Positions 16,242-25,195 of a stretch of 61,470 bases of DNA are shown here, piece after piece; within the stretch, counting starts at the first letter, position 1, and every line of letters starts with the position of its first letter. The notes under the pieces were generated by a model, which saw only the letters and a program-made list of their open reading frames with translations, did not search any database and was not told where the DNA came from. A program made the translations under genes and the position numbers. The stretch is from Candidatus Binatia bacterium (GTDB taxonomy: Bacteria; Desulfobacterota; Binatia; HRBIN30): positions 1 through 61,470 of the forward strand of contig JBGQHM010000001.1 in NCBI GenBank assembly GCA_041497995.1, given 5' to 3'.

Positions 16242-17138
16242 TCATGCGCAACCCACCAGCGCGTTGTTCACGGCGGTGATCAGCTCATTCACGGTCACCT
16301 CGCCGTCGCCGTTGGCATCGAACACCTGACAGGTATCGAGCGGCGCCGTGCCGAGTGCGATGTTGACGCCGATGATGATCTCGTTGACCGTCACCGCGCC
16401 GTCCGCGCTGCAGTCGCCGACGCAGGACACAGGGGTGGAAGTGGCGGTAGGGGTCGGCGAGGGTGGTGGCGTCGCCGTTGGTGTCAGAGTCGGCATAGGC
16501 ACGGTGGTCGTGTGAGTCGGCGTGGCGGAGGCGGCCGGCGTGTGGGTTGCGGAGGCGGTGGCCGTTGATGTGGGTGGGGCGCTCGTCGCGCTCGCCGTCT
16601 GCGTCGCGCTTGGCGTCGCCGAGCTGGTCGCCGTCGGCGGCAGCGAACCCGTAGCTGTCACTGTTGCTGTCGGAGTGATCGTGGACGCCGGGGTTCGCGT
16701 TGGTGTCGGCGTAACGGACGGAGAGCGCGTGGGAGTGTCGGTGCGCGTGGGCGTCGGGGTCAGCGGCGCGGTTACGGTGTTCGTACCGGTCGGCGTTCTC
16801 GTCGGCGTACCGGTCTGAGAGAGGGTCGGTGTGGTTGTCGCAGTGCGTGTTGGTGTGACGCTTGGGGTGCTTGTCGGAGTTGCCGACGCGGCCGGGATAA
16901 CCTGGCTCCACAAGCCGCCGCGCAGCGCATACGAGCCGCCGGTGGCCGTTCCGGCGTCGGGCTGGCCGATCGTACCGCCGAGGCGGAATGCGCCACCCGT
17001 GCTGAAGGTTGCGCCGCCGCCGTCGATGCTATTGCGGGTCAGGTCAAACCCGCCGCCGCTTTGCGCGCGCGCAGTCGGCGCCAGCAGCAGGAGCACGAGG
17101 GCCAGTGTGGGCGGCAGCTGCCGCACGAGTGTGGTCAT
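16242..17138 (-). CDS. secreted protein: Gly-rich N-module, Thr/Pro-rich linker, C-terminal dockerin-like Cys-flanked double EF-hand-type repeat
   Basis: Signal peptide (LLLLAPTARA). The N-module is GGGATFSTGGAFRLGGTIGQPDAG...GGSYALRGGLWS. The last 60 aa are CVGDCSADGAVTVNEIIIGVNIALG...C..FDANGDGEVTVNELITAVNNALVGC. The start shares an ATGA with the upstream fibre gene's stop. Confidence 0.8.
   Translation of the reverse strand: MTTLVRQLPPTLALVLLLLAPTARAQSGGGFDLTRNSIDGGGATFSTGGAFRLGGTIGQPDAGTATGGSYALRGGLWSQVIPAASATPTSTPSVTPTRTATTTPTLSQTGTPTRTPTGTNTVTAPLTPTPTRTDTPTRSPSVTPTPTRTPASTITPTATVTATGSLPPTATSSATPSATQTASATSAPPTSTATASATHTPAASATPTHTTTVPMPTLTPTATPPPSPTPTATSTPVSCVGDCSADGAVTVNEIIIGVNIALGTAPLDTCQVFDANGDGEVTVNELITAVNNALVGCA
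16425..16898 (-). repeat. low-complexity coding repeat (Thr/Pro/Ser/Ala linker, about 158 aa)
   Basis: Reiterated PTPTRT/TPTATS-type units between residues about 81 and 238 of the 298-aa protein. Confidence 0.8.
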
Positions 17139-18838
17139 CGCCCGCTCGGCTGTGATGCGTTGTCAAGGTGTGCCACCCGTTCGCCAACCGCCCGTTCAAG
17201 AACAGCTAGACGCGCTTCGAGTGCCGCGTTGTGCTGTTGGAGTGCCGTGATGGCCGCGTCCTTCTGCCGCATGAGCTCATATAGTCCCTTGATGGCCGCG
17301 AACGCCACACCTTGCGCATCGCTGGTGTTGATCATCGTTTCCTCGCCGAGACCAAAGGCCGCGTGGAAGTCCTGGGCGACGGGGCCGATGTGCTTGTGGG
17401 TAGGATCGGTTCCCTTCAAGTTCCACCACGTCACTGGGAGCGTACTCACGCGGCGCAACGTGTCATGTGCATCGACGGGCACAAAGTTCTCCTTGACGGT
17501 GCGATCGCTCGTGCAGTTCCACCCTACGGAATCCGGATGGAGGTCGCAGTGCGCGTCGCCGCCGTGCCAGAACTCGACGCCGCCGACCGAGGTCACGTTG
17601 AAGTCGTAGAGGTGCGCCGATAGGCCGGCTCGCGTGCCGTCGCTCCAGACGAAGGACCGGTCGTGCAGCGCGTGGGCGTTCATACCCGCAGCGAAGCTGC
17701 CCGTGCCGTGCGCCTCGTTCGTCCAACCACCGGGCACGGTAGAATAGTCACCGCTCGCGGTGTTGTCGGAGCCGCCACCGATGGTGGCACCGAAGCGGCT
17801 GGCGCTGTTGCGCACTCCCCCGCCGACGGTTGAAGCGTCACCACCGGCGGTATTGCTATCTCCGCCTCCGACGGCTGACCTTTCAGCGCTGGCAGTGTTG
17901 TTCGCACCGCCCGCAACAGTTGCACCCACCCCGCTCGCGACGTTGCTGGCGCCACCACCAATTGCCGTGACAGGACCCGTAGCGGTATTCTTCACGCCAC
18001 CACCGACCGTTGCGAAGACGGACGCGATATTCTCCCCCAGGTCACCGCCCCCGCCACCGATGGTGGCACCGTATACCGCGGGCACGCTAACGCCGTTGCC
18101 ACTGAATCCACCGATCACGTTCGGACTGATCATGTTCGGCTCGAGGCGCATGGCACGGGTGCCGTTGACCCGCAGTTCCAGTGCCTGGTTGTCGGTCGTG
18201 CCGAGAAAGGCGCTCGCGGAGGTGCCGCTGTTGCCGGTGAGACTCCAGCAGGATGAAGTGCTCGGCACTTGCCAAACGACACCGCTTCCGTTCGACGTCA
18301 GTACCTGTCCGCTTGTCGAGCCGGTGGCGCTCAGCTTCACCGTGCTAACTTGCGCGTCGCCGATCTTCGCGGTGGTAACGGACCCATTGGCCAGGTCGGC
18401 CGCGTCGAGGCAGGCGGTGCAGGTGACGTCGTTTGCGACGCCAGCAACGGGCGAGTACAGCGCATACGGCGTAGCCGCTAGCGGCTGGCGCGGCGCGAGC
18501 GTGGCGTAACTGCCGCTCCCCGTCGGGCAGCGCACGGCGATCTGCAACCAACGATCGTTGCCGTCGAACGCGCTGCCGCCGAAGTCGAGCGGCACGGTGA
18601 ACAGTCCGTTGGCGACGGCAACCGGGCTGGCGGCCCGCAGGCCGCCGATCTGCGCGCCGCCAAAGGCGGCGTCGAACAGGCCGAACTGGAAGTCACACGC
18701 GTCGTTCGCCGCTGCGCCGGCTGTTTGCAGCTGCCCTTGGTAAGTGAAGGCCGTGCTGAGTGCCGTGCCGCTCTGGGCCGAGCCGCACACGAGCAAGGTG
18801 GCGACGACGATACGACGCCCTACGACCCTCATGTTCAT
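17135..18838 (-). CDS. secreted fibre protein 2 with C-terminal peptidase-S74 intramolecular chaperone domain ('tail fiber domain-containing protein')
   Basis: Start MNMRVVGRRIVVATLLVCGSAQS (signal peptide). The N-module is AFTYQGQLQTAG..CDFQFGLFDA, followed by Gly-rich repeats. The C-terminus is SDRTVKENFVPVD...IGPVAQDFHAAFGLG...INTSDAQGVAFAAIKGLYEL plus a coiled coil. The ATGA at 18835-18838 is shared with the fibre-1 stop. Confidence 0.85.
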   Translation of the reverse strand: MNMRVVGRRIVVATLLVCGSAQSGTALSTAFTYQGQLQTAGAAANDACDFQFGLFDAAFGGAQIGGLRAASPVAVANGLFTVPLDFGGSAFDGNDRWLQIAVRCPTGSGSYATLAPRQPLAATPYALYSPVAGVANDVTCTACLDAADLANGSVTTAKIGDAQVSTVKLSATGSTSGQVLTSNGSGVVWQVPSTSSCWSLTGNSGTSASAFLGTTDNQALELRVNGTRAMRLEPNMISPNVIGGFSGNGVSVPAVYGATIGGGGGDLGENIASVFATVGGGVKNTATGPVTAIGGGASNVASGVGATVAGGANNTASAERSAVGGGDSNTAGGDASTVGGGVRNSASRFGATIGGGSDNTASGDYSTVPGGWTNEAHGTGSFAAGMNAHALHDRSFVWSDGTRAGLSAHLYDFNVTSVGGVEFWHGGDAHCDLHPDSVGWNCTSDRTVKENFVPVDAHDTLRRVSTLPVTWWNLKGTDPTHKHIGPVAQDFHAAFGLGEETMINTSDAQGVAFAAIKGLYELMRQKDAAITALQQHNAALEARLAVLERAVGERVAHLDNASQPSGR

Positions 18839-24800: not shown

Positions 24801-25195
24801 ACCGGCGCATTGGGCAAACGTTCGCGCACCTCGTCGAGGAGCGGCGCGATGTCTGCGACCCCGGGGCCCAGCTCCTCGACCAGCTGCGCCAGCTCGCAGC
24901 TGCGAACGCGTTGGCGGATGATCTGCAGCCACGGCCAGTAGGCGGGCTCGCCCATACTCTGGCACGCACCCCAGAGGACGCGTGCGCCGCGCGCAGCCGC
25001 GTGGTTAGAAAACTCGTCTAGCAGACGGGTCTTGCCGATCCCGGCCTCGCCGGCAATGAGCAGGAGCCGCCCGCGGCCGGCCGCCGCCTCCTCGAACCCG
25101 GCGCGCAACTCGGCCATCTCCCGGTCGCGTCCGACGAACGCGCGGCTGGCAGCGGGATCGTCCCCGACGCCATCGGCTACATTATCAAGACTCAT
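21866..25195 (-). CDS. STAND-type signalling ATPase (AAA_16 P-loop + TPR-like helical repeats) with an uncharacterised C-terminal output module
   Basis: Start MSLDNVADG. FVGRDREMAEL...LLLIAGEAGIGKTRLLDEF (Walker A) and VVLVLDDLHWAD (Walker B), then about 600 aa of TPR-like helices, then the FRKEGDYW.../ERARAAVTMRIR... module. No LuxR HTH and no N-terminal effector domain recognised. Confidence 0.85.
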   Translation of the reverse strand: MSLDNVADGVGDDPAASRAFVGRDREMAELRAGFEEAAAGRGRLLLIAGEAGIGKTRLLDEFSNHAAARGARVLWGACQSMGEPAYWPWLQIIRQRVRSCELAQLVEELGPGVADIAPLLDEVRERLPNAPVRAATLEPEQARFRLFDSIATFLKSVARAQPVVLVLDDLHWADEASTQLLQFLSRELRDARLLVVGTYRHDEIGRQHPLSRALGDLTIGGRILLAGFSEPEVGRFIRAVLETDCPESVAAAVHRHTEGNPFFVSEVVRLLASDGRLPRASDIESGALGIPQGVREVIGRRLDRLSEDCSRALTVAAVIGREFDIELLGGASELTRARLPDLLHEAVAARVLAERPFVLGGFRFAHDLIRAALYSELATDQRRQLHRRVGETLEALCAGDPEPHLAELAHHFFEGTRVGDATKVIDYATRAGQQALGMFAYEEAVKHFERARVCLEATADETPLCELLLALGRAQISAGGWREGKETLRQAAQLARKTGDRTRLAQAALGIVTPFPGFGRVDRTRIALLEEALQSLSTADSALRSQVMSRLANECRGADSDETREALSREALEMARRVGDSAALAQALVSRFWVLFASLAPKTLLYLASEVIDLGTALGDKDLTVMGYNCRITVLQTMGDLARADRDVARRAQLADELREPGHQFTTLCLQATRAVMLGRFPQAEELASQAMAALLGQRSSIGGVLGLLVFHLRYEQGRCDEVEASVVAIAEHDTAIPAARAALASLYVELDREAEARSEFERLAANDFRDLPRDATWLTAVACLAIVCTFLRDTRRSAFLYQLLAPHADLQVGALYFCYVGSVQRYLAILAMTAEHYEQAEQHFQSAFAVETRLGARPALARTQLAYADLLFRRNGPADRERAMRYVEEALQAAQSLGMNSLARKAAALRSAALAAPTLAAAPPIEAAVFRKEGDYWTLAYQGRSVRLKDAKGLRDIAALLMRPGESLHVADLVAGSAAAPAGVRRERAPSDPAIDGRARQEYRARLAELREELEDAERLADLGRADRARTELDLIAGELAAAYGLGGRRRRPGDPAERARAAVTMRIRDSLAKIKRHHPALALHLSRSVKTGTFCSYVPEAPVRWNL

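Follow-up and report, generated by a model that had tools for sequence, protein, structure and literature searches.

The mechanism of the peptidase S74 domain was established from phage K1F, phage T5 and MYRF: the domain is a chaperone that folds the trimer and then cleaves itself off at a serine. To our knowledge, the only earlier description of cell-encoded adhesins that resemble phage fibres is from the predator Bdellovibrio. These MAT fibres are host-encoded trimers exported through Sec, with a constant N-domain of ~130 aa followed by mosaic tips, S74 being found in 13 of 21 (Caulton et al., 2024; PMC10769870). Experiments on one of these host-encoded fibres, Bd3182, demonstrated that it cleaves itself at SDxxxK; the same paper tied the MAT-like proteins of further phyla to predatory lifestyles and left the surface element bound by the N-domain as an explicit open question (PMC10769870). 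Here we describe a five-gene cassette on contig JBGQHM010000001.1 of a Candidatus Binatia bacterium (GCA_041497995.1); the window that we analyzed is this entire contig of 61,470 bp at 65% GC, so that the edges of the contig are the edges of the window. The cassette encodes two S74 fibres, a small partner protein, a STAND ATPase and a stand-alone copy of the C-terminal module of that ATPase. We read it as a regulated chromosomal operon for MAT-like cell-surface fibres and their anchoring adaptor, with a probability of about 0.68, and it is probably a largely unstudied cell-surface adhesion system. The initial annotation of this DNA held that no function or system had been described for such fibres; the MAT fibres are a precedent (PMC10769870), and because they exist and because the protein family is very large, the cassette is less new than that annotation held.

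Architecture and relatives of the fibres

Five open reading frames (ORFs), all co-directional on the minus strand at 16242-25195, encode in order the STAND ATPase, a 126-aa protein, fibre-1, fibre-2 and the partner. The initial annotation had reported these ORFs at the positions given below, with one overlap of 13 nt and two ATGA overlaps, and all of them are present as described. Third-position GC is 0.77-0.82 in the five ORFs, typical for coding sequence at 65% GC. The junction between the 126-aa ORF and fibre-1 (21369-21381) reads ATGGCTACTGTGA and makes up the 13-nt overlap, that between fibre-2 and fibre-1 (18835-18838) reads ACG-ATGA-AC, and that between the partner and fibre-2 (17135-17138) reads GCG-ATGA-CC. 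A GGAGG lies 11 nt 5' of the fibre-1 ATG, and the 126-aa ORF has no obvious Shine-Dalgarno sequence. Through these overlaps the small ORF, fibre-1, fibre-2 and the partner may be translationally coupled.

Both fibres carry the S74 domain. A Pfam profile search recovers Peptidase_S74 (PF13884, gathering cut-off 22) in fibre-1 (848 aa, 18835..21381, minus strand) at 38.3 bits (E 1.6e-9; aa 734-786, nt 19024-19182) and in fibre-2 (567 aa, 17135..18838, minus strand) at 40.0 bits (E 4.8e-10; aa 444-495, nt 17354-17509). The catalytic motif reads SDRNAK in fibre-1 (S734/K739) and SDRTVK in fibre-2 (S444/K449), and the S, D, R and K of S-D-R-x-x-K are invariant in an alignment of 17 homologous sequences, in agreement with the intact Ser-Lys dyad first noted from the letters of the window. 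A search of the S74 profile against the PDB returned mostly coiled-coil matches, with MYRF no better than E 0.16, so we take S74 membership from Pfam. From the mechanism of the family, S74 would nucleate trimerization and then cut itself at the Ser of S-D-R-x-x-K.

The two fibres, which had been seen to share their N-terminal and C-terminal parts, are paralogues: their identity is 62% in the N-terminal ~370 residues and 54% in the C-terminal ~290. The repeat region of fibre-2 is the shorter one. Homology and structure prediction together show a predicted architecture of signal peptide, N-terminal β-sandwich with a Cys pair (the N-module), neck, left-handed β-roll of head repeats, S74 chaperone and coiled coil. 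Signal peptides are predicted from the sequence on both fibres and on the partner, with an N-terminal helix in the AlphaFold2 model, and we infer that all three are exported through Sec. Directly after the signal peptide, at ~aa 26-134 of fibre-1, comes the N-module, whose invariant C48/C104 fit an extracytoplasmic location. In the AlphaFold2 model of the fibre-2 monomer, residues 28-120 form a β-sandwich (predicted local distance difference test, pLDDT, 82-90) and residues ~270-380 a β-roll (pLDDT 80-90), while the neck and the S74 region are modeled poorly. Foldseek comparison of this model with the PDB gave nothing below E 0.1 and pointed to generic Ig-like folds.

The Gly-rich repeats of the shaft are homologous to the left-handed β-roll head of UspA1 and YadA; the UspA1 head (3pr7) is matched at E 3.1e-16 by fibre-1 (phmmer) and at E 4.2e-19 by fibre-2. 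In this they resemble the trimeric autotransporter adhesins, but the anchor and translocator of the YadA type are missing: its C-terminal β-barrel is not among the Pfam matches of the fibres, which end in S74 and a coiled coil, and it is these rather than a β-barrel that would trimerize the protein. An identity as trimeric autotransporters is thus ruled out by the lack of an anchor.

In many Chloroflexota relatives with S74 the coiled coil is not the end of the protein but leads into a transmembrane helix and a basic (Arg/Lys) tail, so that their cleaved chaperone would stay tethered to the membrane. Cleavage would then release a trimer from the tethered chaperone, as in MYRF, a eukaryotic membrane-tethered protein with an S74/ICA domain. 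The fibres of the window differ in having no such tail, and the part released would be an extracellular fibre rather than a transcription factor. Examples of tailed S74 fibres are P0005, P0036, P0049, P0063, P0069, P0110, P0111 and many ORFs in L015-L086.

Homologues are numerous and predominantly cellular. Fibre-2 has more than 7,400, many of them on long chromosomal contigs. A profile of the N-module has 207 confirmed matches in species-representative genomes and 1 match in 2.9 million IMG/VR contigs. The hosts are mostly Chloroflexota (Anaerolineae, Thermoflexales and Chloroflexus, including the cultured C. islandicus) and Binatia, with others among the 'Deltaproteobacteria', Terriglobia, Planctomycetota and Margulisiibacteriota, and a genome often holds several copies. 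At E <= 1e-3, an exhaustive HMMER search with the N-module, which has no Pfam model, reached 35,692 cluster representatives, and at E <= 1e-10 it reached 23,994; the distance of the module from the N-terminus is nearly always 30-60 residues. Tips vary within the family, which is thus a mosaic: S74 ends 28 of the 82 complete N-module proteins, and several recurring alternative tips end the remainder. In P0252 (1039 aa) and P0253-P0256 the N-module is present in two or three tandem copies instead of one.

Could the two fibres nevertheless be what is left of a domesticated or decaying phage, that is, belong as tail fibres to a prophage, tailocin or extracellular contractile injection system (eCIS) that has its remaining genes at another place in the genome? 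The S74 domain is classically associated with phages, and phage tailspikes and fibres such as the K1F endosialidase and pb1, the L-shaped tail fibre of T5, have the same C-terminal Ser-Lys chaperone, with trimer folding and self-removal, and likewise YadA-like head repeats in the shaft. Fibre-2 matches PHROGs tail-fibre and virion-protein families, the BFVD matches of its model are uncultured-phage proteins with YadA-like heads that share the shaft at 35-39% identity, and S74 can occur on eCIS fibres (PMC12923769). One homologue, P0036 (L003 1736-6446, in a 3.68-Mb genome), lies ~3.5 kb from divergent Phage_capsid_4 and Terminase_6C genes. We nonetheless consider such a remnant very unlikely. 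Both fibres have N-terminal export signals, as does even P0036, whereas virion fibres assembled in the cytoplasm need none; the N-module is nearly missing from IMG/VR, with a single locus; and the conserved neighbors are a regulator and a secreted partner, in cellular operons with neither phage genes nor a baseplate or virion context. The initial annotation had found no phage genes around the cassette, and a scan of ~30 flanking proteins across the 61 kb likewise yields cellular proteins throughout, with no capsid, tail, sheath, baseplate, lysis or integrase gene. P0036, which begins with a leader peptide, ends in a transmembrane tail and is not followed by a partner gene, is the only context beside capsid and terminase genes; P0005, P0072 and P0077 are in cellular contexts, so homologues are not always embedded in prophages. 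The first description of the fibres as cellular and secreted rather than part of a prophage is borne out by this cellular context, the recovery of S74, the synteny described next and the non-prophage homologues.

A near-identical contig is present in GCA_041478385.1. More informative is L001, a relative from a Logan assembly that has all five genes in identical order. Nucleotide identity between the two is 77% for the STAND gene, 86% for the intergenic region between it and the small ORF, 85% for the small ORF, 59% for the fibre genes and 68% for the partner gene, and 49-59% for the flanks. The synteny of the cassette is therefore upheld, with the five-gene order kept in L001 at 59-85% nucleotide identity and the pair of fibre and last gene found across phyla.

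Set against MAT fibres, the family shares host encoding, S74 with SDxxxK in a subset and other tips elsewhere, and several paralogues per genome; its predicted signal peptide, the conserved β-rich domain placed directly after it and the predicted long trimeric fibre parallel those of MAT fibres in architecture. Even the database names are alike, 'YapH-like/tail fibre' there and 'trimeric autotransporter adhesin' or 'tail fiber domain-containing protein' for the homologues of fibre-2 here. The families differ in the shaft, which is a UspA1-type β-roll here, and in the conserved downstream partner and linked STAND, which are not described in the MAT paper.

This parallel with MAT fibres raises the question of whether the fibres are devices of predation or antagonism, with MAT-like or bacteriocin-type receptor binding aimed at other bacteria and not at inert surfaces. 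The MAT paper names MAT-like proteins of predators in several phyla (PMC10769870). Within the cassette the fibre genes also evolve fastest: their nucleotide identity to L001 is 59%, and that of the regulator genes 77-85%. This fits receptor-binding proteins under diversifying pressure. On the other side, and as a further difference from MAT fibres, we know of no predators among the Anaerolineae, Thermoflexales, Chloroflexus and Binatia that host the family, and domain scans found no toxin or lytic domain in the cassette. We regard a predatory or antagonistic role as unlikely and prefer to see in the mature fibres adhesins that may bind surfaces, particles or other cells.

The partner protein and its C-terminal tags

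The last gene of the cassette encodes a partner protein (298 aa, 16242..17138, minus strand). Its predicted leader is followed by a Gly-rich domain of ~55 aa (aa 26-78, nt 16905-17063), which a Thr/Pro linker joins to a pair of EF-hand/dockerin-like loops flanked by Cys (aa 237-298, nt 16245-16430). The protein had been called dockerin-like: the duplicated loop-helix is indeed visible, but Dockerin_1 is matched below threshold (15 bits, E 0.029; cut-off 22.9), and the best score of the module is that for a Ca-loop pair of the EF-hand type (EF-hand_1, 24.6 bits; cut-off 25.4). Its homologue in L005 exceeds the EF-hand cut-offs. Other members of the partner-domain family are hypothetical proteins of ~90-110 aa without a Pfam domain.

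Linkage between fibre and partner extends well beyond the Binatia. In the other loci of our comparison set of 86, a partner-domain gene lies at most 700 nt downstream of 53 of the 76 fibre genes with enough flanking sequence (70%), and 4 further fibre genes precede another fibre gene. The linkage is independent of the tip, as the partner is present behind 19 of 27 S74 fibres and 34 of 49 fibres with other tips. N-module and partner distances co-vary (Mantel r = 0.68, 0/999 permutations), a figure that phylogeny confounds.

While the domain is shared, what follows it varies by lineage. In Binatia-type genomes a TP linker and then the dockerin-like tag come after the partner domain; the Chloroflexota partner (~95 aa) consists of leader, domain and a C-terminal 'xYLPLVLR' tail; and further versions elsewhere bear IPTL-CTERM, a sortase domain or an FN3-like domain. 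Among the partner homologues at L074 11415-12239 / P0159, one is a fusion to a sortase (E 2e-18) with LPATG between both parts, and another has an IPTL-CTERM sorting signal. The dockerin-like tag, the YLPLVLR tail, IPTL-CTERM and the sortase fusion are all modules of a surface-sorting type. Because large secreted proteins encoded nearby also end in the first two, these appear to be surface tags that differ by lineage. The dockerin-like module terminates giant secreted neighbors of 1185, 2607 and 2963 aa (L005 3361-3540 and 16302-16478; L007 9466-9642) and a HExxH metalloprotease-like protein downstream of the L001 cassette (L001 10310-13900).

The second tail, written as [YFI]LP[LI][VI][LVM][RK](x0-4)-COOH, ends 55 of 5004 ORFs in loci L009-L086, against 0 in a reversed-sequence control. 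The partner-domain pattern is fitted by 32 of the 55, several others are partners that the pattern missed, and ~13 belong to Chloroflexota loci and are leader-bearing proteins of other kinds, 415-1472 aa long. Examples of the tail are found at L022 3933-5804 and 5984-9835, L010 3940-5736, L079 8089-9762 and L054 6129-10547. It has the appearance of a sorting or anchor tag, so far undescribed. An ORF of 252 aa at L050 9881-10639 fuses a fibre N-module and first head repeats in-frame to the second half of a partner domain with YLPLVLR; this looks like a deletion between the similar Gly-rich repeats of fibre and partner.

From this gene linkage, the Gly-rich N-domain of the partner would bind the constant part of the fibre, and its Ca-binding, dockerin-like tag may fasten it to a scaffold or to the envelope itself. 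More tentatively, we suggest a wider scheme that we find possible though doubtful, in which the small Gly-rich partner is the cell-surface adaptor of MAT-like fibres and co-folds only with their constant N-part, its lineage-specific C-terminal tag fixing the fibre to the envelope; together with a STAND/SARP switch, this would form a widespread two-component fibre-anchor system in non-predatory bacteria.

The STAND ATPase, the 126-aa protein and the intergenic hairpin

At the upstream end of the cassette, the STAND ATPase (1109 aa, 21866..25195, minus strand) matches the Pfam families AAA_16 (E 7e-35) and TPR_12 (E 3.4e-8) and ends in a C-terminal module of ~190 aa that lies outside known families. 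Its N-terminal half shows a likeness, far under cut-off, to the STAND region of TOMM kinase/cyclase proteins. The 126-aa protein (21369..21749, minus strand) is a stand-alone copy of both ends of the C-terminal module, minus a coiled-coil insert. An alignment (A4) has invariant F19, R20, G23, W26, G32 and R33 and the invariant motifs LKD..KG and ERAR..VT...TG..C.Y.P, and tblastn finds internal matches to the STAND C-terminus, so that the initial designation of the small protein as a mini-paralogue of the ATPase stands. The small protein is 82.5% identical to its counterpart at the same position of L001, and its family is rare, with 18 matches and no Pfam domain; on the small ORF and the STAND C-terminus, Pfam at lenient E-values returned only noise.

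A STAND homologue is upstream and co-directional, often directly adjacent, in 16 of the 62 loci with at least 4 kb of flank (26%). In the Binatia locus L026 a full-length homologue, 44% identical, lies directly upstream of a fibre gene. The three Chloroflexota cassette STANDs that were scanned with Pfam (L032, L011 and L010) have BTAD, AAA_16 and MalT-type TPR, the architecture of AfsR-like activators, and that of L011 has in addition weak sub-threshold matches to HTH_11 and DUF1670 at its C-terminus. The window STAND has the AAA_16 P-loop and TPR sensor in common with SARP/LAL STAND activators such as AfsR and MalT; it differs from them in its C-terminal module, duplicated as the 126-aa gene, and in the lack of BTAD, OmpR or LuxR domains.

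Between SARP-STAND and fibre genes, 11 Chloroflexota loci hold an ORF of ~75 aa with the pattern ..FVVRFWWE..WRGRIEHVQSGEG.AF...LLAFIERF.. and no Pfam match (L015 4134-4379, L019 7056-7301, L024 4157-4372, L032 9111-9350, L036 9627-9869, L062 3754-3972 and five more loci). Homology to the 126-aa ORF, which has the equivalent position in the window, was considered and rejected: hhalign paired the segments that we had anticipated, but the similarity is not significant (E 0.054, probability 1%), so we treat the ~75-aa ORF as a positional analogue only.

The STAND gene is separated from the small ORF by a conserved intergenic region of 116 nt (21750-21865, minus strand) that holds a long imperfect hairpin (21788..21867, minus strand) beginning within the STAND stop codon. 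This hairpin, present in the initial annotation, is real: its minimum free energy is -61 kcal/mol (z = -8.2), and 0 of 200 shuffles were equally stable. It matches no Rfam family and its arms occur nowhere else in the window, which speaks against a known RNA element or dispersed repeat; a terminator scan made no call, and an intrinsic terminator was likewise rejected. Downstream of the hairpin on the minus strand, positions 21750-21790 contain the nearly invariant CCTTCCTTACATTGTAACGATCTTTCTTACGCC, with the palindrome TTACATTGTAA inside it. This palindromic stretch is a candidate operator or promoter element 5' of the small ORF.

We infer from these features that the STAND protein and the 126-aa protein form a regulator pair. 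The ATPase would be a putative transcriptional switch of the cassette that responds to a signal and acts on the four downstream genes, with the 126-aa copy of its C-terminal module probably modulating it and the hairpin-containing intergenic region probably bearing the control site. A STAND NTPase beside phage-like proteins also recalls Avs systems, and NCBIfam and PADLOC give weak matches to Avs2, which could suggest anti-phage defense by an Avs-like sensor with the fibre-like proteins as decoys or effectors. We judge this highly improbable. The Avs2 matches cover the P-loop only, scoring 15.2 bits in NCBIfam, where the cut-off is 1000, and 13.5 bits with the PADLOC model, and the remaining proteins of the cassette have no PADLOC match, so that PADLOC returns nothing meaningful for a defense identity. 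The Chloroflexota counterparts of the ATPase bear BTAD transcription-activator domains, and the fibres and partner, being predicted to be exported, could not be cytoplasmic effectors.

Genomic setting and significance

The cassette sits 16 kb and 36 kb from the ends of the contig, surrounded by cellular genes; neither tRNA genes nor Rfam matches were found in the window. Other genes across the window include those for a TonB-dependent receptor, a multihaem cytochrome, WS/DGAT, a GH94-like protein, a histidine kinase, a P-type ATPase, 2-oxoacid dehydrogenase subunits, minor pilins and a PilB/MshE-type ATPase. The latter (30398-32908, plus strand) has MshEN, a double zinc ribbon and a C-terminal response-regulator receiver, and is preceded by three N_methyl pseudopilin genes and a gene for a 743-aa PilX_N protein (26298-30147, plus strand). 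The initial annotation had drawn attention to this adjacent minor-pilin/PilB cluster. The adjacency is true here but lineage-specific, being seen only in L001 and L002, and in L001 the PilB/MshE homologue directly adjoins the STAND gene with no pilin genes between; a general link to type IV pilus/PilB genes was accordingly dropped, as it is restricted to the closest relatives. Further away, at 54548-57496 on the minus strand, a 981-aa protein combines Sortilin-Vps10/BNR repeats with a Cys-rich DUF4215 repeat, and a fibre neighbor in L005 resembles it (CBM96 with faint Sortilin-Vps10).

Several points weigh against reading the locus as a regulated operon for MAT-like fibres and their adaptor. 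The likeness to MAT fibres is one of architecture, and the N-module, a ~105-aa β-sandwich after the leader, is a putative relative at most of the ~130-aa MAT domain. The contact between fibre and partner is proposed from the linkage of their genes, and 19 of the 76 fibre genes have no detectable partner. AlphaFold2 found no confident fold for the partner domain as a monomer (68 sequences, pLDDT ~48), a result that would fit co-folding but that we do not count in its favor. No ligand-binding or tip-binding domain was identified in the fibres, and the reading offers no route across the outer membrane, should the host have two membranes. Finally, Pfam searches of the STAND protein, including lenient E-values at its C-terminus, found no BTAD, OmpR winged helix-turn-helix (wHTH) or LuxR HTH DNA-binding domain; because it has no recognizable DNA-binding domain, its role as a regulator is proposed by analogy with the Chloroflexota cassettes.

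A literature search on this fibre family in Chloroflexota or Binatia found nothing apart from the MAT paper, and the conserved unit of fibre, partner and STAND appears to be undescribed in the searchable literature. Two protein families without a Pfam model are flagged here, the N-terminal domain with its 35,692 clusters and the small partner, along with a possible new C-terminal sorting tag in related loci. Taken together, our findings show that environmental bacteria not known as predators, filamentous Chloroflexota and Binatia among them, very commonly encode fibres of a similar kind. The linked STAND is a candidate for the control of the operon, and the downstream partner is a concrete candidate for the fibre anchor about which the MAT paper asked. 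If the adaptor reading is true, a two-component fibre-anchor system would span tens of thousands of protein clusters.

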